From: an uncultured Bacteriovoracaceae bacterium
Lineage (GTDB): Bacteria; Bdellovibrionota; Bacteriovoracia; Bacteriovoracales; Bacteriovoracaceae
DNA: 64,000 nucleotides
Direction: 5' to 3'
Assembly (NCBI GenBank): GCA_964400895.1
Contig: CAYNWL010000002.1
Coordinates: 398,084 to 462,083 of the forward strand
How positions within the stretch are numbered: position 1 is the stretch's first letter; every line of letters starts with the position of its first letter. A program made the position numbers and the translations under genes. The notes beneath the pieces are model-generated. The model worked only from the letters and a program-made list of their open reading frames with translations. It was not told the DNA's origin and ran no database searches. This document shows, piece by piece, positions 5,174-61,678 of this stretch.

Positions 5174-5248
5174 CGGAGCGTAGCGCAGGGGTAGCGCACT
5201 TGCTTTGGGAGCAAGTGGTCGGAGGTTCAAATCCTCTCGCTCCGACCA
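5174..5248 (+). tRNA. tRNA-Pro (anticodon UGG), CCA encoded
   Basis: Cloverleaf folds by hand. Acceptor CGGAGCG/CGCTCCG, D stem GCGC/GCGC, anticodon stem CTTGC/GCAAG with loop TT-TGG-GA, T arm GGAGG-TTCAAAT-CCTCT, then A-CCA. Confidence 0.9.
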
Positions 5249-47870: not shown

Positions 47871-50039
47871 ATGCTTGAGCTAACAAAGGGCACAAATGCC
47901 ATGAAAGAAAACTCTGTCGAAAAAAAGTTAAAACTTGCTAAAAAATACGGCCTATCCAACAAGGATTTAATCGGTTTTTTAAAAAATATTTATTTATCTC
48001 GAAGATTAGATGATGCAGAGATTTCCATGAGAAAGGCCGCAACTGCATTCTTCCAAATTTCCGGTGCCGGCCATGAAGGTGTCCTATCTGCCTTTGCCAA
48101 AGTTTTAAAGCCTAAATATGACTGGTTTGTCCCTTACTATCGGGATCGCGCCCTTTGCCTTTCATTGGGAGTTACCCCTTATGAAATGCTTTGCCAGGCG
48201 AACGGAAATACTGGAGATAGCGCTTCCCATGGCAGACAGATGCCAGTTCATTTTGGAAATAAAAATTTAAATATTTTGTCTAAATCTTCTTGCACAGGTA
48301 CCCAATTTCTTCATGGCGTAGGGTTGGCCGAGGCAGGAAAATTTTTGCAATCTCTTGCAAAAAGAAAAATCAAAACCAATTTGGACTCCTATCCCGATGA
48401 AATCATTTATGTTTCAAGTGGTGATGGAACAACCTCCCAAGGAGAGTTTTGGGAAGCCCTAACTACTGCTGTGGTAAATAAACTTCCTGTTCTTTTTATG
48501 GTTGAGGATAATGGCTATGCCATATCAGTTCCTGTTGGAGTGCAGACTCCTGCTGGATCAATTTCCAGGGCCTTGGAACATTTTCCTGGACTTAAAATTT
48601 TTACCTGTGATGGAAACTGCCCAATAGATTCATATGCTGCTGCAGTTGAATGTGAAGAGTATTTAAGATCAGGAGAAGGCCCGGCCTTGGTTCATGCAAA
48701 TGTTACCAGACCTTATAGTCACTCCCTATCAGATGATCACTCAAATTATCGAACCAAAGAAGATCTATCCCATGAAAAAAGCTTGGATGTTTTTAATTCA
48801 TATCCCAAACTTTTGATGGATGGTAAGGTTATCACCCAGGAAGACTTTGAAAAATTAAAAAAGGAAATTGATCTAGAGGTTAAAGAGGCCAGAGAAAAAG
48901 CAGAAAGCACTCCTTGGCCGGAAAAATCCACCGCCTGTGACCATCTTTTTTCTGATTTAGATGTTACCTCTTTAGAATTTGAAACAGCACCTAAGTTTTC
49001 TGGAAAAGAAGACGTCCCCATGTCTCAGGCAATAAACAATGTTTTAAAATCTGAAATCAAAAGGAATCCCCTAATGAGGATGTTTGGGGAAGACGTAGCG
49101 GATTTTTCTGATCTTTCAAAACTTGAAGATCCCAATTTAAAAGGCAAAGGTGGTGTTTTTTCTGTTTCCCGCGGCTGTCAAAGGGTTTCCATCGAAGGAC
49201 AGGTCTTCAATTCACCATTAGCAGAGGCCAATATTATTGGAAGGGCAGTGGGAATGGCCGCAAGAGGAATAAAGCCAGTTGTTGAAATTCAGTTTTTTGA
49301 TTATATCTGGACAGCTTTCATGCAACTTAAAAATGAGATGGCCACTATGAGGTATAGATCAGGAGGGGATTTTAAAAGCCCAATGGTAGTAAGGGTGCCC
49401 ATTGGAGGATATCTTAGGGGTGGAGCGATTTATCACTCCCAAAGCGGAGAATCTATTTTTACTCATATCCCAGGAATTAGAGTCGTCTTTCCCTCCAACT
49501 CAACAGATGCCGCAGGATTATTAAGAACTGCAATCAGATGTGATGATCCCGTATTATTTTTGGAACACAAGCATCTCTATTATCAGGGCTATAATAGATC
49601 AGCTGATCCCGGGGAAGATTTTATGATTCCATTTGGTAAAGCAAGACTTGTAAAAGAAGGTTCAGATGCCACGATCTTGGCCTGGGGAGCATTGGTACAA
49701 AAATCTGTAGATGCCGCAAAAGCTGTTGAAAAAGAAACTGGAAAAACCGTGGAAATTTTAGACGCCAGAACTTTAGTTCCATTTGATATGGAATCCCTTA
49801 AAAATTCTCTTTTCAAAACAAATAGACTTCTAATCTGCCATGAGGAAACTAAGACTTCTGGATTTGCCGGAGAGATATCTGCCAGAGTAAATGAGGAATG
49901 TTTTGAATATTTGGATGCCCCTATATTAAGAGTTACCGCCAAAGATTCCCACGTTGCCTATAATCCTGCATTAGAAGATGAAATTCTGCCTCAGATGGAA
50001 AATGTAAAAGAGGCACTTTTAAAACTTTTATCCTACTGA
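47871..50039 (+). CDS. fused alpha/beta E1 component of a 2-oxoacid (branched-chain type) dehydrogenase
   Basis: The N-terminal half resembles the TPP-binding E1-alpha (GDGTTSQGEFWEAL). The C-terminal half resembles E1-beta (FNSPLAEANIIGRAVGMA, VVEIQFFDY). Confidence 0.8.
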   Translation: MLELTKGTNAMKENSVEKKLKLAKKYGLSNKDLIGFLKNIYLSRRLDDAEISMRKAATAFFQISGAGHEGVLSAFAKVLKPKYDWFVPYYRDRALCLSLGVTPYEMLCQANGNTGDSASHGRQMPVHFGNKNLNILSKSSCTGTQFLHGVGLAEAGKFLQSLAKRKIKTNLDSYPDEIIYVSSGDGTTSQGEFWEALTTAVVNKLPVLFMVEDNGYAISVPVGVQTPAGSISRALEHFPGLKIFTCDGNCPIDSYAAAVECEEYLRSGEGPALVHANVTRPYSHSLSDDHSNYRTKEDLSHEKSLDVFNSYPKLLMDGKVITQEDFEKLKKEIDLEVKEAREKAESTPWPEKSTACDHLFSDLDVTSLEFETAPKFSGKEDVPMSQAINNVLKSEIKRNPLMRMFGEDVADFSDLSKLEDPNLKGKGGVFSVSRGCQRVSIEGQVFNSPLAEANIIGRAVGMAARGIKPVVEIQFFDYIWTAFMQLKNEMATMRYRSGGDFKSPMVVRVPIGGYLRGGAIYHSQSGESIFTHIPGIRVVFPSNSTDAAGLLRTAIRCDDPVLFLEHKHLYYQGYNRSADPGEDFMIPFGKARLVKEGSDATILAWGALVQKSVDAAKAVEKETGKTVEILDARTLVPFDMESLKNSLFKTNRLLICHEETKTSGFAGEISARVNEECFEYLDAPILRVTAKDSHVAYNPALEDEILPQMENVKEALLKLLSY

Positions 50040-51139
50040 CAGCTTTTATTTATCCCCCCGAGAGAAAATTCATAGCTGCATCTCCAACCCTGGTGGTATT
50101 CAATAATATACCCTTTGGTATTTCGAGAAATTTTTTTAATTCCTTCTTTATCTAAGGCCAGATAAAAACTATCTCTTCTCTGAGGCACAATTTTATTTAA
50201 ATTAAAAATGGCAGGAGACGAAAAAATTGAAAAAATAATCAAGGCCGTAGCTTTTTTTTTAAAATTTAAACTAGAAATAAAAATAAGAATTAAAATAAGA
50301 AGCTCACCGGATATAAAAATGGATGGGGAGTGTTTTAAATAAAAATTTCCCCATTTTATCAAAAATAAAAACACGCTGAGCAAGAATTTGGAAAAAAAGG
50401 ATATCCCAGGAAAACAAAAGGAAATAAAAAAAATGGGAAAAATAAAAGTGAAAATAGAGGTTAAAAAAAATCCTAAAATAAAATTTAATGGTAAAAAGGG
50501 CGTGTCCAGAAAAAAATGAATTAGAATTTGTCCCAGCATTAGGAAAAATGGGAGCCAAATAAATGGCCATTTTTGATGGGAAAATATTAGCCCCAAAAAC
50601 AAAAAGCTATAGATAAAGCTAAGTGGCGCCCCATCAAAAGTTCCGAATAAGAAATCTAGGAGGAAGGCCAACAAAAAAATCCAGAATAGGGAAAATTTAT
50701 TTTTTGTACGTTGAAACAACAATGAAAGAAGTTTTAAAAATGAAACTCTTTTCACCGCAAAAAAACCATCCAGAAAAAAAGGTGGAAGGGTTAATAAAAA
50801 GGACAAAACGAAAAAATAATTAAAAGATTTAAATTTTAAAAAGGCCAAGAGAGGAGTTAAGAACAAAAATAGCGAACTTAAATGAAGCCCTGATGGAGTA
50901 AATAAATGAATAAGATAAAGGTTTTTATGGGAGGAAACGATAGATTTGGAAATACCTTTTTGACCTCCAACCGTATAGGCAAATAAAACTGAGGATAAAT
51001 TGTTATCTTTTATAACTGATTCAACTTTTTCCTTTTGCCGGGTAATAAAAAGTGGTTCTTTTGTGGGAATTGATCTTTTTGACTCATAGCATAAAATAAG
51101 GATAAAGGTAGTAATTAATATAAAAAGCACCCGGTTCAT
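50033..51139 (-). CDS. ComEC/Rec2-like membrane channel domain protein
   Basis: Polytopic membrane protein with YLIHLFTPSGLHLS (compare the ComEC HLLAISGLH block). It has only the Competence-domain portion, with no metallo-beta-lactamase part. Confidence 0.5.
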   Translation of the reverse strand: MNRVLFILITTFILILCYESKRSIPTKEPLFITRQKEKVESVIKDNNLSSVLFAYTVGGQKGISKSIVSSHKNLYLIHLFTPSGLHLSSLFLFLTPLLAFLKFKSFNYFFVLSFLLTLPPFFLDGFFAVKRVSFLKLLSLLFQRTKNKFSLFWIFLLAFLLDFLFGTFDGAPLSFIYSFLFLGLIFSHQKWPFIWLPFFLMLGQILIHFFLDTPFLPLNFILGFFLTSIFTFIFPIFFISFCFPGISFFSKFLLSVFLFLIKWGNFYLKHSPSIFISGELLILILIFISSLNFKKKATALIIFSIFSSPAIFNLNKIVPQRRDSFYLALDKEGIKKISRNTKGYIIEYHQGWRCSYEFSLGGINKSCQ

Positions 51140-54486: not shown

Positions 54487-55518
54487 ATGTTTAGCCAAGT
54501 AATAGATTGGTCCAAAAATCAATTTTCTAATTTGCCCTGGCGAAAGGAAAGATCCCTTTATGGGACTTTAGTTTCCGAAATCATGCTTCAACAAACTACC
54601 GTGCCTACAGTAATTGGCCGATTTGAAAATTTTTTATCCAAATTTCCAGATTTAAATTCCCTTTCAAAGGCATCCGAGGAAGATTTGCTTATGGCCTGGA
54701 AAGGACTTGGATATTATCGCAGGGCCAGAAATTTAAAACTGGCCGCTAAAGAAATTCTAAAGAAATTTCAAGGAAATATTCCCGATGATATTGCAAATTT
54801 AAAAGAAATTAAAGGAATTGGAGAATATACCGCAAATGCCATAGTGGCGATTGGTCACAACAAATTTGCGCTATCCTTGGATGCCAATTTGGAAAGGGTT
54901 CTCTGTAGATTTTTTGCCCTCCCCCTTACAAAGGGGCCAAATCTAAAAAAGGATTTAACAAAAGAACTCCATGAACTGGGAATTGTGGAAAAGTTTAAAA
55001 ATTTTTCCTCCAGGGATTTAATGGAAGCTTTGATGGATTTAGGCAGAGTCATATGCCAGGCCAATAAAGTTAACTGCAAAGAATGCCCATTAAACAAAAA
55101 TTGCAAATCCTATAAATTGGGCAGTCCTTTGGAATATCCTAAAACATTAATGAAAGAGAAAAAAAACTTTGAATTAAACTTGCTTAGAATCGCGGTAAAA
55201 AGTAAGCATAAAATATTTTTGGTTAAAAGAGAAACGGGATATTGGCTGGAGGGCCAGTGGGAAATCCCCACATTTATTTTAAAATCGGAGGATAAAAAAA
55301 TTAGGCAATATCCCATGTTAGAGAACACAGAAATAACACTTCCAAAAACATTTTCCTTTAAAACCAACATCACCAACTACAAGATAAAAAATTTTATTTT
55401 GAAAATGGATGAGAAAGAATTTAAAGAAAAATTTGGTTTATCTGGGAAATATTTTGACTCAAAAACCAAAAATAATAATTTTACAACCGCTACCCTCAAG
55501 GCATTAAAGTTTTTATGA
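54487..55518 (+). CDS. mutY: A/G-specific adenine DNA glycosylase
   Basis: HhH-GPD region (SEIMLQQTTV, GLGYYRRARNL, GIGEYTANAI), 4Fe-4S loop C-x6-C-x2-C-x5-C, and a C-terminal NUDIX-like domain. Confidence 0.85.
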   Translation: MFSQVIDWSKNQFSNLPWRKERSLYGTLVSEIMLQQTTVPTVIGRFENFLSKFPDLNSLSKASEEDLLMAWKGLGYYRRARNLKLAAKEILKKFQGNIPDDIANLKEIKGIGEYTANAIVAIGHNKFALSLDANLERVLCRFFALPLTKGPNLKKDLTKELHELGIVEKFKNFSSRDLMEALMDLGRVICQANKVNCKECPLNKNCKSYKLGSPLEYPKTLMKEKKNFELNLLRIAVKSKHKIFLVKRETGYWLEGQWEIPTFILKSEDKKIRQYPMLENTEITLPKTFSFKTNITNYKIKNFILKMDEKEFKEKFGLSGKYFDSKTKNNNFTTATLKALKFL

Positions 55519-56591
55519 TAAAAATTTTATTTTTACTCTTTTCCTTAAGTGTTTTTTCCCAGGAACAAATTTCTGTAATGACCTATAACATGTCCTTAAA
55601 ATATGGAAAAGAAAATCCTAGATTTCCAGAAATAATCAAGGAACTTAAAAAACTAGATTCGGATATCTTATGTCTGCAAGAGGCCTATGAACCCCAAAAA
55701 GTAATTGATCGATTAGAGTATCCCCACAGTTTTTATGTCGAATCTTCTCAAACTTATTTTTCTTATGGTGTTTGCCCTATTTGGGAGCTTTTTAAATTTG
55801 ATAATCCCTTTATATGTAGAATTAAAAACTGCTCAAATTTTACAGGAAAGGAATTAAACGATTGTCTGGTCGAAAAATGTTTCTCTTCAATGGAAAATTT
55901 AAGGAAAAATAATAACGAGTGTGCCCAGGCCTTTATTACAAGAATCCAAGATAATGCCGTGGTGGATATATTTGCCCTAATAAATCCTTTTAAATCACTG
56001 CCTAAGTTTTTAGATAATGGTTCCACAGGATTGTTAATGCTCTCAAAATTCCCAATACAGAATAAGGAATCAGGCGATTTTTCAACCATATCCGCTATTA
56101 GAAACAGGGGAGTGCTTATCGCGGATATTTCAGGATTTAGGATAATTTGTGCAACAACCACTGGAAGGGGAGGTGGGTATGTCTATATGGGAACAAATGA
56201 TTCCTGGGAAAATGAGAATAAAATCCAAATTGAAAAACTAAAAAAATGGTTGACCGGAAAAAATGATATTTTATTGGGGAACCTAAATTGTTCAACAGAA
56301 GTTCCTTATACAGACATCAAAGAGAGTTTTTCAAAGAATTGTGAAAGTTTGGAAGATATGGGACTTGAGGAACCCATTTATAAAAAACCTGAATGCACGT
56401 ATTGCCCCTATAACAATCTTGTTAGTGATCAGGAACCCGGCGGATTGATAACAGATAATCTATTTATTCGGAAAGATTCGATGATTGATGTAGATGTGGT
56501 CATGAAAAATCTCAATGAATCGGAAAGTTTTTTATCGGATCATTTTGGAGTGAGAGTAATACTTAAAAAAAATCCCCGAGAAGAGGAATAA
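55515..56591 (+). CDS. secreted endonuclease/exonuclease/phosphatase (EEP) family hydrolase
   Basis: Signal peptide, N-terminal ISVMTYNM ... DILCLQEA and C-terminal SDHFGVRV blocks of the EEP fold. Cys-rich insertions. The last codons and stop lie inside the rnpB-derived repeat. Confidence 0.65.
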   Translation: MIKILFLLFSLSVFSQEQISVMTYNMSLKYGKENPRFPEIIKELKKLDSDILCLQEAYEPQKVIDRLEYPHSFYVESSQTYFSYGVCPIWELFKFDNPFICRIKNCSNFTGKELNDCLVEKCFSSMENLRKNNNECAQAFITRIQDNAVVDIFALINPFKSLPKFLDNGSTGLLMLSKFPIQNKESGDFSTISAIRNRGVLIADISGFRIICATTTGRGGGYVYMGTNDSWENENKIQIEKLKKWLTGKNDILLGNLNCSTEVPYTDIKESFSKNCESLEDMGLEEPIYKKPECTYCPYNNLVSDQEPGGLITDNLFIRKDSMIDVDVVMKNLNESESFLSDHFGVRVILKKNPREEE

Positions 56592-56660
56592 GCCGGATTT
56601 TGTTTTCGACCACCATTCCTCTAGGATCCCAGTCGCCTAGGACCTCATGAGCCGTATCCT
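56565..56660 (-). repeat. displaced copy A of the rnpB 3' end (att-like direct repeat)
   Basis: 56567-56631 is identical (65 nt) to 59848-59912, the 3' end of the intact rnpB. Similarity continues in diverged form to about 56660 (gacctcatga gccgtatcc vs gacctcatgc gtcctaccc). Confidence 0.85.
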
Positions 56661-58486
56661 TAAGAGTTTAACTGTTTTCATTTTTAAATAAATTTTTTAG
56701 TTTTTCTTTACTTCTAAGGTCGAGACTGAGTATTGATTCTGACATAGCTTTAATTGTTTTAGATTTTGAAATGAGTTCATCCTTATTTTTAAAGGTTGAA
56801 TGATTAGAATCTGCCATCTGATTAATTATAATAGGCATTACAAAATCAAAAAGTTTCCTGCAGGAGTCCTCTAAGAGGTTTTTATCATTTAAAATATCTG
56901 AATTAAAAGAAAGCTTTCTTTGAGAGAATCCGGACAAAAGGGAACCAATTATTCCTATGGTGTAAAGTACCATATACTTAAAGGTTCCATAATTAAATAA
57001 TTTACTAATTTCACTGAAATTCTCAGAATTCCTTTGATCTAAGGACGCCCTATAGGAATTTAATCTCTTATGTAGAAAATAAAAGGTGAGGTAGTTTTCA
57101 ATAGAGAAATCATCATCCCCGAAAACATTAATGTATTTTGATTCGTTTTCAAAAATTTCGGAATGATTCTTTCCAGCAGTTACTGGATCTCCATAAGCTC
57201 CACAAAGTACTTTTCCCAAAATTTCAAAATCCACGGTCTCTTGAGTTTTTGGTCTGGACCCACCTCTTTGGGTAATATATAAAATTCCTTTTTCTTCCAA
57301 CTTTTCTTTTATTCTCTTTTGAATTCTATCTATTGATCTCAATTCCCACGGTTTAACTGGGTTTTGTGTATTATTATTTTTAATGATTTTTTCAATAATC
57401 TCAGAAGAAGTGGCCTCAATAACCCTTGCAGGTAGGATAATTTTTCCTAATTTTTCTTCTTCCACTTTTGAAAGACATCCACAAGTTTGAGCACCATTAA
57501 TTAAGGTCACTCCCTCAATGGTGACTGAATTTTTGGTGATTTCGGATATTTTAGAGGTTAGTAAAGTTATTCCATTATGAAAGGGCAAAAAATTTTCTGG
57601 TTCATTATTGGCTGTCTGGATAATTGAATTGTTGATATTTTTGCTTGTTTTTCGGGATCCAATAAAATCTCTGATATTCCCACTTGTGAAATCTTCACCG
57701 TATTTATTACTTAATTGGACGAGTTCTTTAGCTTCCATTGTAAAAATACAAGTTTTCCAACGGTCATTTTTAATCAGAATAGTAGGGTAATTTGTAGAAA
57801 TTTTGATTTGGTCAGTGATTTTTATGTTTTCCTGCAATTCCTTTTTAAGGTTAAATAAATGAGTAATTCCAATTTCTTGGCATCTAGCCTCAATATCCTT
57901 GCCTTCCAATTTTGATTCTAGGTTAGCCTTTAGGGTATCCAATTCTTTTTGCACATTTTTGGAATTGGGGAGATTGTGAACATAATAGCAATTAATAGAA
58001 TTAATTTTTTCCTTCTCGATTAATTCTCTTAACTGAATTGCTTTATACTTAATTGTATCACTAGAAATTGACTCTAAATCTGCATCAATCAACCAACTGA
58101 GGGTTCCATTAAGATCCGTGGCTTTTTTAGAGGGAGCTGAGTCCCTTGTCCAATTTTGGGCCAAATAAGATTGTCCCAAATGGACGGCTTCGGTTCGGCT
58201 GTCGTATATAAAAAAATCAAGACCCTTATCATCCACTTTGGTATCATTGTGATCAATAATGTAAGAAGAAAATATCTCTTCGTAATCATTTGTTTTTAAT
58301 AAAACCCCAAGGAAAAATACTAATAAGGAGTTGTTGTTAAATTTTTTTAAATGATCTTTTTCAATCTCACTTTGTACATATTTTACAAAGGCATCTTGGT
58401 CTTTAAACATTTTTTACCTCAAAGGAAAAATTTGAACAATGACCTCTTTTATAAATGTGGGTAGGAAAAATGTCTATATTGGGAGA
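56661..58486. mobile_element. degenerate islet I between rnpB-fragment repeats (cargo: AIPR gene; no integrase)
   Basis: Bounded by rnpB 3'-end copies A and B in the same orientation. Visibly more AT-rich than its flanks. A single gene fills it. Confidence 0.5.
56668..58410 (-). CDS. AIPR-family abortive-infection (phage resistance) protein
   Basis: 580 aa. The N-terminal DDKGLDFFIYDSRTEAVHLGQSYL block and the central GNIRDFIGSRKTSKNINNSIIQTANNEPENFLPFHNGITLL ... LINGAQT block match my recollection of the AIPR (PF10592) signature. Confidence 0.6.
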   Translation of the reverse strand: MFKDQDAFVKYVQSEIEKDHLKKFNNNSLLVFFLGVLLKTNDYEEIFSSYIIDHNDTKVDDKGLDFFIYDSRTEAVHLGQSYLAQNWTRDSAPSKKATDLNGTLSWLIDADLESISSDTIKYKAIQLRELIEKEKINSINCYYVHNLPNSKNVQKELDTLKANLESKLEGKDIEARCQEIGITHLFNLKKELQENIKITDQIKISTNYPTILIKNDRWKTCIFTMEAKELVQLSNKYGEDFTSGNIRDFIGSRKTSKNINNSIIQTANNEPENFLPFHNGITLLTSKISEITKNSVTIEGVTLINGAQTCGCLSKVEEEKLGKIILPARVIEATSSEIIEKIIKNNNTQNPVKPWELRSIDRIQKRIKEKLEEKGILYITQRGGSRPKTQETVDFEILGKVLCGAYGDPVTAGKNHSEIFENESKYINVFGDDDFSIENYLTFYFLHKRLNSYRASLDQRNSENFSEISKLFNYGTFKYMVLYTIGIIGSLLSGFSQRKLSFNSDILNDKNLLEDSCRKLFDFVMPIIINQMADSNHSTFKNKDELISKSKTIKAMSESILSLDLRSKEKLKNLFKNENS

Positions 58487-58610
58487 TAAAAATCCCTGAA
58501 GAGGAATAAGGATTTTGTTTTCGACCACACCTCCTCTAGGACCTCATGCGCCCTACCCACCTGCCAAGTTCTAGCCTGTCATTAATAGCAAATCTATTTG
58601 GGCTTGTCCG
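58487..58610 (-). repeat. decayed copy B of the rnpB 3' end (att-like direct repeat)
   Basis: aaaaatccctgaagaggaataaggattttgttttcgaccacacctcctctagg-acctcatgcgccctacccacctgcca...tagca.atctatttgg.cttg aligns with 59849 to about 59990. Small deletions remove ga, gcc and the 17-nt hairpin atcccaagttacccggg. Confidence 0.7.
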
Positions 58611-58618
58611 AGTCAAGA

Positions 58619-58688
58619 TTGACCCATATTTAGAATAAAAATTAAATATTTTTAAAATTTTATGGTTAATAAATAATGCATGGGTCAA
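58619..58688. promoter_or_regulatory. 9-bp perfect inverted repeat upstream of the orphan gene
   Basis: TTGACCCAT (58619-58627) and ATGGGTCAA (58680-58688), about 100 bp upstream of the 58784 ORF. Could be an operator or a long hairpin. Confidence 0.2.
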
Positions 58689-58783
58689 ATTTTAATATTT
58701 TTTTTAAAGGAGTGGAAAAGAATATTTCCTGTGGTAAAAGTCATTTCTTACTATTTGGATAAATTAAAGGAAATAGAACTAAT

Positions 58784-59788
58784 TTGAGAATGCCTATGAA
58801 TGAGAAAATTGATAAGAAACTAAATAAGTTTGTTACAAAAGCCATTAATTTTGTAAAAAGTTTTTGGCCTACTATTTGTGTAGCATTTTTACTTTTTTGG
58901 GGATTGTGGAAACTTTATCATTTTGGGTCTTTTTTTGAAGAGTCAAATTTAAGAGAAACGATAAGTCTTGGTTCTTTATTTGCGGCGATTGCAATACCAA
59001 TTGTTGTATTTAATTTAAAAAACTTTCAAAAAATCTCTAGGGTAAAAATTCAAGAGGGAAATGCGTATCATGCCTTGGATAAAATAATTTTGGAATTAAT
59101 AAACCTTTATACAAGTCTACCCATATTTTTTGGCAAGGTATTAGATAAAAAAATTATCCAAGAATCTTCTCAAAAATTGCCTTTTCCAGAACTTTGTATT
59201 GATGGAATTTTTCAAATTGTAAAAAGTCAGCACTTACTTAATACAGAAAAGGAACATTTTCGAGATTCTTTAATAAGCCTTACTCCTCAGATTCAAAAAT
59301 TAGAGCAGAATTATAAGGAAACTAAAGATATCCATAATGAATTAGCTTCAATACTAATAAAACCATTATCAGAAATAATTGAAAATGAAGTAAATAAGGA
59401 AGGTTTATTTAAAAAAGGTATACTTGAACCTCAACCTTTTGAATTTTTAAAAATTCACGAATTTCAAACCCAAGTAAGAGAACTTCGAAGAAATATTTCT
59501 GAGACCTTACTGTTATTAATAGAATCAATTGTTATGACCGATTTTATTATTGAAAATAGTAACACCAAAATTGTTAAACAATATTTGGAAAGAATAAATT
59601 TAATAGATTGTGAGGACGTAATTAGAGCTAAATTTCTAAATTTTGTTATTGATGTAAACTATTTTATAGAGGAAAAAAGAATTGCGAAATATATGAAAAT
59701 TTCGGAAAAAAGTTCATTTCCTAAAAATAATATTCCTAAATCAAACAACAAGGATAGGGGAACCGACCTCACCCCTAGCTTAAATTAG
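58784..59788 (+). CDS. orphan membrane-anchored (2-TM) alpha-helical protein, no recognisable family
   Basis: 334-aa ORF (TTG; alternative ATGs at 58790 and 58796). Two N-terminal TM helices (FWPTICVAFLLFWGLWKLYHF, LGSLFAAIAIPIVVFNL). The rest looks helical and charged. It is the only gene in islet II. Confidence 0.5.
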   Translation: MRMPMNEKIDKKLNKFVTKAINFVKSFWPTICVAFLLFWGLWKLYHFGSFFEESNLRETISLGSLFAAIAIPIVVFNLKNFQKISRVKIQEGNAYHALDKIILELINLYTSLPIFFGKVLDKKIIQESSQKLPFPELCIDGIFQIVKSQHLLNTEKEHFRDSLISLTPQIQKLEQNYKETKDIHNELASILIKPLSEIIENEVNKEGLFKKGILEPQPFEFLKIHEFQTQVRELRRNISETLLLLIESIVMTDFIIENSNTKIVKQYLERINLIDCEDVIRAKFLNFVIDVNYFIEEKRIAKYMKISEKSSFPKNNIPKSNNKDRGTDLTPSLN

Positions 59789-59854
59789 AAAAAAATCCTT
59801 TATTTCAATTAAACTGAATTATTTAATCTAAGTTTAAAGCGGTTATGAAAAAAT

Positions 59855-60155
59855 CCCCGAGAAGAGGAATAAGCCGGATTTTGTTTTCGACCACCATTCC
59901 TCTAGGATCCCAAGTTACCCGGGACCTCATGCGTCCTACCCGCCTGCCACGATCTGGCCAATCTTAAATAGCAGGCCTATTTGGACTTGCACCACGTAGA
60001 GTTTACCTGATTTCACTACAGCATGACCTGTACATTCTTTCTGTTGCACTAGTCCTCATCTTGCGATGGACGGGCGTTACCCGCTACGTTGCCATGTGGT
60101 GTCCGGACTTTCCTCCCGTACCCGAAAGTACCAGCGGTAGTCCCCTCTTCTCGAG
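59855..60155 (-). ncRNA. rnpB: RNase P RNA, bacterial type A, compact (~300 nt; ends approximate)
   Basis: The reverse complement has P1 CGAGAAGAGG...CCUCUUCUCG and GGGAGGAAAGUCCGGAC (P4 5' strand). It also has GGGUAACGCCC, AGUGCAACAGAAAG, GGUAAACUCUACGUGGUGCAAGUCCAAAUAGG, and ACAAAAUCCGGCUUAU (P4 3' strand) followed by a U-run. The patch is GC-rich in an AT-rich genome. Confidence 0.9.
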
Positions 60156-60241
60156 AATTATTCATTCAATATTTCAACTTGGCCTATTCGTCAAATTTGG
60201 GTGAAAATACTACAAGTTGGCAATATTATTATGGATTTAAG

Positions 60242-61678
60242 GTGAGAAAATCAAGGTGGATTATTTTCATTTTTCTAATTATTCCCTCAATGGGAAGATC
60301 CGAATTGGTTTCCATGGTAAGGGAACTACTGGCCAATAATTCAGATATTAATACTTCAAAATCCAAAGTTGCCATTTCTGTTAATGAAATTGAAGCCTAT
60401 TATGCAAAGATGCCCTGGTCGTTTATTTATACCGGATCCTACACCCAGGATAAGAGAGATTATCTAATTAAGTTTGTAAATTACAATGCTGAATATTGGA
60501 ATAACGAAATTGGAATTGAAAAGGATTTTATATTCGGCGGGAAATTCAAATATAAAATTTTTAGCAGTAATCAATATCGATATGAGGATAATGCCGCAGT
60601 TTTAGCGGGAGAGCCTCCAAGGGTATTTGAACTCCTCCAAAACATCAATTTTACAGAAGATATTGGGCAGAATTTTTTTGGCCGTGAACAATACAAGGAA
60701 GTTGAGATCAGAGAAAAAAATAAGGGAAATTCCGAATCAGAATATGATCTTGAAATCGAAAACAAGGTATTAGATTTTTTTAGGGCCTATATAAATGTCC
60801 GCCTTTTAAGGACAATTGTTCGAATAGAAGAAAATGCCCTCGAAAGGTCAAAAGAACGGGTTAAAGCCATTTCTCAAATGGTGAAAAATGGCTTAAGACA
60901 AAAAGTTGATATTTTAGAGGCCCAATATCAGGAAATCGAATATGAACAAAGCAAAAGAAGGGCCCTTATTAGTTTAGGTAGTGCACTGGAAGAAATTTCC
61001 AATTTATTACATAGGGAGGTAAAAGTAGAAGAGTTAGAATATCTTATTCCCTTCCAAAAAATTTTTCCCCTCACGCTAAATTCAAAGGGGGAAATCCTTT
61101 CCAATAAAAATATCTTATCATTGGAAACCCAGGCAGAAGTTATAAAGGCCAATCTGGAAAAAATAAATTATGGATTTTTTCCGGAACTAAATTTAGAGGC
61201 CAATTATTTAAGCAATGCAATCGAGCCAACCAGAAAAGAAGCTAATCAATTGGCCTTTTTTGGCCCAGGTTATGAATTTAAAGGTTTGATTAATCTTAAA
61301 TGGCCCTTAGGCTATCCAGAAAAAGAGACTGACAGAACCAGAAATAGGATCGATTTTAATAATCTGCAAGTTAAAAGAAATGCAACCCTAAACAACTTAA
61401 AAAACTCTGAAAAATATATTTTTTTTCGTTTAAAAAATCTGGAAGAAAACTTGGAAATGGGTAAAAAAAGGTGGGAACTTTCAAAAGATATAGTTAAAAA
61501 TTATAACCATCTTTATGGAATTGGGAGAACTCAAATTTTAGAAACAATAACCGCGGAGCAAAATAGGATAGAAACCGAAAGAGGTTATATGTTAAATTTG
61601 GCGGAAAGGGAAAAGCTTTACGCTTCACTGGCCTACTTGTGGGGTAGGCTTAAAGATACGGTTCTCACAATTAAGTAA
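60242..61678 (+). CDS. TolC-like outer-membrane efflux protein
   Basis: The GTG at 60242 gives signal peptide (M)RKSRWIIFIFLIIPSMG and avoids rnpB. OEP-like N-terminus (LVSMVRELLANNSDINTSKSKV) and two helical-repeat halves. The first 51 codons of the ORF-track start at 60089 are antisense to rnpB. Confidence 0.5.
   Translation: MRKSRWIIFIFLIIPSMGRSELVSMVRELLANNSDINTSKSKVAISVNEIEAYYAKMPWSFIYTGSYTQDKRDYLIKFVNYNAEYWNNEIGIEKDFIFGGKFKYKIFSSNQYRYEDNAAVLAGEPPRVFELLQNINFTEDIGQNFFGREQYKEVEIREKNKGNSESEYDLEIENKVLDFFRAYINVRLLRTIVRIEENALERSKERVKAISQMVKNGLRQKVDILEAQYQEIEYEQSKRRALISLGSALEEISNLLHREVKVEELEYLIPFQKIFPLTLNSKGEILSNKNILSLETQAEVIKANLEKINYGFFPELNLEANYLSNAIEPTRKEANQLAFFGPGYEFKGLINLKWPLGYPEKETDRTRNRIDFNNLQVKRNATLNNLKNSEKYIFFRLKNLEENLEMGKKRWELSKDIVKNYNHLYGIGRTQILETITAEQNRIETERGYMLNLAEREKLYASLAYLWGRLKDTVLTIK

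Follow-up and report, generated by a model that had tools for sequence, protein, structure and literature searches.

Displaced copies of the rnpB 3' end delimit a two-gene insertion next to an intact RNase P RNA gene in a Bacteriovoracaceae genome

The DNA analysed here is a 64,000-nucleotide stretch of contig CAYNWL010000002.1 from an uncultured Bacteriovoracaceae bacterium (hereafter the window), in which the gene for RNase P RNA (rnpB) is accompanied by two displaced copies of its own 3' end and by two cargo genes lying between them. A first-pass annotation, made from the letters alone, had proposed that rnpB serves in this genome as an integration hot spot. As that annotation had it, an intact rnpB lies on the minus strand; it is of type A and spans 59854-60153, where the Rfam model RF00010 is matched across its full length (model positions 1-367) with 217.9 bits and an E-value of 2.5e-69, the gathering score being 100 bits. 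The RNA is only about 300 nt long in this clade, a reduced type A, and one 43-nt block of the RF00010 alignment is skipped almost entirely and one 28-nt block in part. The P1/P2 strands of the resident gene co-vary in keeping with those of its relatives, and a mosaic test for a foreign 3' part of the resident gene gave no signal.

Both displaced copies are in the same orientation as the gene. A 19-mer core is present three times in the window and no more, where 0.01 occurrences would be expected by chance. All three copies have the A/U-run (U-tract) at the RNA 3' end as their outer edge, and in all three the P1/P2 allele state is the one that pairs with the 5' strand of the resident gene. The outermost copy (copy 1) begins with an identity block at 56567-56631 on the minus strand, which matches the right-hand direct repeat (59848-59912, minus strand; the terminal 59 nt of rnpB and the adjoining A/U-run) at 65 of 65 positions. 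This block holds the U-tract, the P1 3' strand, J18/2 and the 3' arm of P18. The copy then continues into a diverged inner part (56632-56660, minus strand) with the P18 loop and 5' arm. With the continuation included, copy 1 is 93.6% identical to the gene over 78 nt (blastn, E 3e-28), and alone it scores 34 bits against RF00010 (E 2.9e-8). The distance from the start of copy 1 to the start of the resident repeat is 3281 bp, made up of intervals of 1915 and 1366 bp.

Copy 1 thus ceases to match the resident gene inside P18: the 3' arm is shared, while the loop (GCGA in copy 1, GUAA in the gene) and the 5' arm differ. The hairpin is nevertheless still an 8-bp stem, fully paired and with no non-canonical pairs in the local RF00010 alignment, and its predicted folding energy is -10.9 kcal/mol compared with -11.5 for the resident P18. 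Because eight pairs are kept despite changes in both stem and loop, this inner part points to a functional or dyad-constrained origin rather than drift. Past P18 the similarity fades, in a segment that is invariant across all functional rnpB genes (alignment to nine rnpB alleles). The rnpB 3' end has a terminator-like hairpin with a T-run, and copy 1 carries an identical one (56587-56573, minus strand).

The internal copy (copy 2; 58487-58610, minus strand) lies between the divergent cargo genes and corresponds to RNA positions of about 165-293. It is recovered as two blastn segments (81% over 68 nt, E 6e-10, and 87% over 47 nt, E 8e-9), and its local-alignment score stands at z=34 against 1000 shuffles. 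As had been noted from the letters, it is more decayed than copy 1 yet reaches further into the gene: it is about 80% identical to the rnpB 3' end, with three indels, and holds about 130 nt of rnpB, compared with about 80 nt in copy 1. P18 has been lost in a 17-nt deletion, the P1 strand carries deletions of 3 and 2 nt, and it is because of these changes that copy 2 falls below the covariance-model threshold. No hairpin was left at the P18 position when the fold was checked, and promoter-like sites near copy 2 were not in excess of the shuffled expectation.

Only two real open reading frames (ORFs) lie between the outer repeats. Cargo 1 (56668-58410, minus strand) encodes a 580-aa protein which, judged by its domain matches, is a member of the AIPR/AbiU abortive-infection proteins; it matches PF10592 (E 1.3e-26, 94.5 bits against a threshold of 25) and the PADLOC AbiU model (E 1.1e-37, residues 82-547). 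Its length is normal for the family and its nearest homologue is 31% identical. The terminator-like hairpin of copy 1 lies about 80 nt downstream of its stop codon and may now terminate this gene. Cargo 2 (58790-59788, plus strand; probability of remaining open by chance 2e-14) encodes a protein of 332 aa that is all-helical and has two hydrophobic segments at its N-terminus. The first-pass annotation had named these genes as AIPR and an orphan two-transmembrane protein, and of these assignments only the orphan status fell: a word-indexed search returned cargo 2 itself and nothing else, but an exhaustive HMMER scan recovered seven distant relatives that match over the full length (22-29% identity) and include one from a Bdellovibrio sp., so that by homology cargo 2 is a member of a very rare family rather than a strict orphan. 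No Pfam or PADLOC match was found for cargo 2, and a PADLOC scan of all family members was likewise negative. An AlphaFold (AF2) model built with a multiple sequence alignment is all-helical with a pLDDT of 76 (39 for the single-sequence model); it had no fold match at E<0.06 in PDB or BFVD, and the family profile had no match among PDB sequences. The possibility that cargo 2 is a diverged recombinase was considered and rejected on its two transmembrane segments, all-helical make-up and lack of a conserved His/Tyr.

Both cargo genes depart in composition from the 47 background ORFs (mean GC 36.5%, sd 2.7; mean GC at third codon positions, GC3, 30.9%, sd 2.7), as had been anticipated. The departure is mild for the AIPR gene (GC 31.4%, z -1.85) and strong for cargo 2, whose GC of 27.3% and GC3 of 19.8% (z -4.1) lie below all 47 background ORFs. 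This atypical composition, that of cargo 2 especially, was counted in favour of insertion.

On the left, the segment is flanked by a gene of the endonuclease/exonuclease/phosphatase family (EEP; 55515-56591, plus strand; PF03372, E 4.4e-5), which ends inside copy 1: its final eight codons and stop (KNPREEE*) lie at 56567-56591. On the right lies an outer-membrane efflux (TolC-like) gene annotated at 60089-61678 on the plus strand (PF02321, E 1.8e-20), the true start of which is probably downstream of rnpB, at about 60232. Exact-protein look-ups of the window EEP and AIPR sequences returned no record.

To place this arrangement among related bacteria, related contigs were reached through EEP orthologues, which mark the source of the window as a Bacteriovoracales MAG. 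In seven lineages (L001, L004, L006, L007, L008, L010 and L017) the EEP gene runs straight into an intact rnpB, and in an eighth (L016) the site is empty too as far as the contig reaches. The EEP tail in the empty-site lineages (...KKNPREEE*) is encoded inside the intact rnpB, after which the same TolC-like gene follows; this gene adjoins the rnpB 5' end in all relatives (synteny established in L001, L002, L004, L007, L008, L011 and L014). EEP is also next to rnpB in the deep outgroups L011/12/13 and L014, with EEP proteins about 37% identical to that of the window. A scan of GTDB genomes with the EEP alignment returned no relative, a GTDB scan with a degenerate rnpB pattern returned only the two deep outgroups, both with empty sites, and a pattern scan of metagenomes contributed two more of these empty sites. 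One further candidate from the metagenome scan (L005) was rejected as a chance match. The empty site predicted by the first-pass annotation, with EEP abutting rnpB, was therefore found in about ten related lineages, including the two closest and the two deep outgroups. The 3'-end core is present once in each of the relatives, and the three-copy arrangement in none.

The EEP tree puts the window together with L001 and L010, both of them empty-site lineages. Since the outgroups are empty as well, the insertion is derived. The ancestral arrangement is an EEP gene converging on rnpB, with the EEP stop codon within the rnpB 3' end, and in this genome alone two single-gene modules split that junction. 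The segment is accordingly a derived insertion at a reused site, bounded by direct repeats of the rnpB 3' end, and rnpB has remained intact.

Reuse of the site is seen in a monophyletic sister clade (L002/L003, L009 and L018), in which a 495-aa LMF1-like gene occupies the same junction. The repeat flanking this insertion is only about 10 nt long (AAAAAAATCC). The LMF1-like gene has acquired the rnpB-encoded tail KNPREEE* (as QKNPREEE*), and the EEP there is shortened to KKSP* or KKNP*. Because the segment carrying AIPR and cargo 2 and the LMF1-like insertion are separate events, the junction has been used at least twice independently. This supports the description of the junction as a hot spot in a modest sense; the earlier suggestion of a defence hot spot is not supported, there being one predicted defence gene, and the LMF1-like gene not being a defence gene. 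The look for other cargo at the same site that the first-pass annotation had proposed gave this gene and no integrase-bearing relative. As a separate observation, whichever gene lies downstream of rnpB has its last eight codons and stop formed by the antisense of the rnpB P1 3' strand (window, 56567-56591; L001, 8010-8034; L002, 12577-12601).

With moderate confidence, we favour the reading that the segment is an integrase-less, probably accreted two-module islet that integrated via the rnpB 3' end in the style of islands at tRNA and tmRNA genes. Such islands enter their target genes by a single crossover, and their identity block runs to the gene 3' end. Entry here would have been by one reciprocal crossover of the Campbell type, with the rnpB 3' end of the chromosome as one partner and an attP-like copy of that end on incoming circular DNA as the other; rnpB would have been regenerated, and copy 1, its displaced 3' end, left next to EEP, the former neighbour. 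The landmark of this crossover would be the P18 hairpin. Past the P18 3' arm, copy 1 continues into a 5' arm and loop that are different and yet self-complementary, as would fit a dyad-symmetric att core analogous to the anticodon or T stem-loop of a tRNA. Copy 2 would be an older junction of like kind with its P18 core deleted, and the segment would combine two modules that came together by accretion. Presumably a tyrosine integrase served as recombinase; it would have acted in trans or been lost since, and copy 1 would now supply both the EEP C-terminus and the terminator-like hairpin downstream of AIPR. Of these elements, the mode of recombination, P18 as its core and any part played by an integrase are inferred.

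The first-pass annotation had envisaged two successive insertions into rnpB. In plain succession the outermost copy should be the oldest, yet it is the inner copy 2 that is far more decayed, being about 20% diverged when the 40 non-coding nucleotides of copy 1 show no change. For a copy 1 of the same age as copy 2, the probability of no change would be about 1e-4 by our own arithmetic, and a two-step history is disfavoured for this reason. Three histories fit better: a composite arriving once, entry of the AIPR module into a copy that was displaced already, or conversion of copy 1 by rnpB or the reverse. Arrival in one piece, or the AIPR module entering a displaced copy, would be the most likely course, and two plain hits on the intact gene a less likely one. 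The further suggestion that both elements had lost their integrases was an inference of that annotation for which no relic was found in support.

Several results weigh against integration via the rnpB 3' end as set out above. As the first-pass annotation had stated, the islets are integrase-less: no integrase, recombinase, excisionase or transposase is encoded in them, nor among the window ORFs of at least 150 aa, which are ordinary housekeeping genes. No integrase-bearing element was found at rnpB in the roughly 14 related lineages, a clade that is thinly sampled, and neither the cargo nor the att-like sequence was found in viral, plasmid or phage collections, whether by scans of viral contigs for the two cargo proteins and the rnpB 3' pattern or by blastn of the island and rnpB against phage and plasmid collections. 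The terminal 60 nt of rnpB are almost invariant across the clade in the alignment to nine alleles, so that the 65-nt identity gives neither a date nor a crossover position. The different lengths of rnpB in the two copies argue against a single fixed crossover point, and the junction may be permissive to more than one mechanism, the LMF1-like repeat being as short as it is. Finally, the insertion is known from one genome only, a metagenome-assembled genome (MAG).

Some of the same results bear on an integrase-free homologous capture, in which DNA from related bacteria carrying an rnpB 3' end would have entered through a RecA-dependent single crossover with the chromosomal rnpB. The donor could have been circular or linear, for example an islet excised between its own repeats, and the duplicated length would be whatever the donor held of rnpB. 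This agrees with the lack of an integrase, with the unequal rnpB lengths of the two displaced copies and with the resident P1/P2 allele state carried by both. Homology across species is also ready to hand, the terminal 60 nt of rnpB in L002 being exactly as in the window though its EEP is only 62% identical. Even so, P18 is where the identity of copy 1 ends, where copy 2 has its deletion and where the E. coli rnpB repeats (see below) have their boundary, which speaks for a specific site; 65 nt is short for RecA-mediated integration; and the hairpin symmetry kept in the inner arm of copy 1 is not required by homologous recombination. We consider homologous capture a possible but unlikely origin of the segment.

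Local reiteration of the rnpB 3' end, followed by insertion of unrelated genes between the units, is quite improbable here. Such reiteration does occur. Repeats in the 3' flank of the E. coli rnpB were reportedly described by Reed and Altman in 1983, and in E. coli K-12 MG1655 (NC_000913.3) we find 3.5 tandem, head-to-tail and cargo-less units of 113 bp at 96% identity, starting inside the rnpB 3' end (L015, 1347-1767). The rnpB-derived part of these units ends 2 nt 3' of P18, with a 12-nt insertion relative to the gene. Against this course of events, two gene insertions would each have had to fall exactly between repeat units, an extra copy is present in none of about 13 relatives, and the repeats of the window share no downstream spacer as the E. 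coli units do. The E. coli repeats are a partial precedent: same-orientation reiteration of terminal rnpB downstream of the gene and the P18 boundary are common to both, whereas the E. coli units are gene-free, adjoin one another and share spacer and terminator, and the copies here lie 1.4-1.9 kb apart, are separated by unique cargo and have decayed unequally.

An assembly artefact, in which the real site is empty and a 3,281-bp circle or a co-occurring strain variant with the 65-nt repeat was threaded into the contig, appears very improbable. The source is a MAG contig, the repeat is exact, the unit between the repeats would close as a circle of that size, and the 60-nt terminal block is identical among different co-existing lineages. 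The 544-kb contig nonetheless passes through three copies, so the repeats are resolved; modern assemblers work with k-mers longer than 65 or with read pairs; a replication function would be missing from the circle; and, even if the artefact were real, the rnpB 3' end would still be present on the element as an att-like site. That the three copies are an ancient fixed structure, lost repeatedly and precisely by direct-repeat recombination, which can restore a perfect empty site with no scar, is effectively refuted by the at least four to five independent losses required on the EEP tree against one gain, by the empty sites of both deep outgroups, by the strong compositional deviation of cargo 2 and by the retention of no part of the arrangement in any relative.

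Integration via the rnpB 3' end, the reading preferred here, has its closest known counterparts at tRNA and tmRNA genes. The islands and prophages found at the 3' ends of these genes, catalogued in the Islander database, are associated with tyrosine integrases of the P4, HP1 and CP4-57 types, whose gene lies within the island and as a rule adjoins the target. Likewise here, the target is an essential, structured and conserved RNA gene that is kept intact, the direct repeats (65 of 65 nt) are the 3' end of the target with their outer edge at the gene end, a stem-loop closes the identity block, a predicted phage-defence gene is among the cargo and relatives have empty sites. The present case differs in that the target is rnpB, no integrase is encoded, the whole spans 3.3 kb with two genes and there is a third, internal copy. 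This last feature recalls cis-mobilisable elements (CIMEs) and the tandem accretion of integrative and conjugative elements (ICEs) and genomic islands, such as ICESt1/CIME in Streptococcus thermophilus, in which integrase-less modules lie between att-type repeats. An internal att-like copy between modules and a probable origin by accretion would be common to both, but no cognate integrase-bearing element was found here in the lineages and collections searched, and the internal copy, without P18 (the presumed core) and about 20% diverged, suggests an array that is probably frozen. Tn7-like elements and CRISPR-associated transposons (CAST) that home to sites downstream of conserved RNA genes are further removed: they carry transposase genes and terminal inverted repeats and duplicate about 5 bp of target, unlike the segment here, which has no transposase genes and duplicates 65-130 nt of its own target gene.

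A non-tRNA structural RNA gene as attachment site has a precedent in the Enterococcus phage phiEf11, whose attB lies within ffs (4.5S RNA) and was described in 2025 as a novel non-coding RNA attB in a paper that names only tRNA/tmRNA and csRNA as earlier non-coding RNA targets (PMC12540744). For the phiEf11 site the integrase is identified, the core measures 27 nt and experiments have confirmed the case, whereas the rnpB islet is read from sequence. In keeping with the remark in the first-pass annotation that rnpB is rarely described as an attB, no such report was found in the literature searched, where rnpB appears only as a phylogenetic marker or as a quantitative PCR (qPCR) reference.

The feature is real, and at rnpB it is best read as a modestly new form of the island integration known from tRNA genes. 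Integration at tRNA and tmRNA 3' ends is a cornerstone of island finding in bacteria, on which the Islander database builds, and other structural RNA genes, ffs among them, are only now being recognised as targets. The case at rnpB is a clean one, with the gene intact, its 3' ends displaced, empty sites in relatives and a putative defence gene as cargo, and island finders should therefore scan for truncated RNase P RNA matches as well. An att core at P18 is a concrete hypothesis that might also explain the old E. coli rnpB repeats. The weight of the case is limited because it comes from a single MAG and has no known recombinase. A bolder extension, distinctly unlikely in our estimate, would make the P18 hairpin an att site for tiny, integrase-less single-gene cassettes that are mobilised in trans and stacked by accretion, with rnpB as a miniature array of defence genes in predatory bacteria and the 113-bp repeats of E. 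coli as scars of the same process.

Some minor observations concern the surroundings of the locus. A second presence/absence polymorphism is seen across rnpB from the insertion: the TolC-like and CT398-like genes are separated by an AcrB-like (ACR_tran) gene of 3.1 kb in L001 (9945-13073), L002 (14496-17630), L007 and L011, and this gene is absent from the window (61671-61678) and from L004 (4238-4243). A 368-aa ORF at 50033-51139 (minus strand), with no Pfam match and the lowest GC of the background set (30.5%), keeps its position in L001, L002 and L011. The sole tRNA gene of the window, tRNA-Pro (UGG) at 5174-5248, is 50 kb from the rnpB insertion; no integrase or island adjoins it, the upstream neighbour being a Ham1-family gene and the downstream one a 248-aa ORF without a Pfam match.

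Matches to the E. coli rnpB in records labelled as phage were considered as possible prophages near rnpB and were dropped, since the one examined proved to be a mislabelled Acinetobacter contig. Besides a complete rnpB, this record (CAKLQH020000044.1, 'Acinetobacter phage MD-2021a') holds a tRNA-Met and metabolic genes of an ordinary kind, and it looks like a mislabelled contig of a bacterial chromosome; CAKLQF020000022.1, under the same name, has the same rnpB match. In the jumbo cyanophage MaAM05 of Microcystis (MW495066.1), positions 115323-115518 are 73% identical to positions 127-317 of the E. coli rnpB query, roughly half of the gene, and may be a phage-borne RNase P RNA-like sequence.

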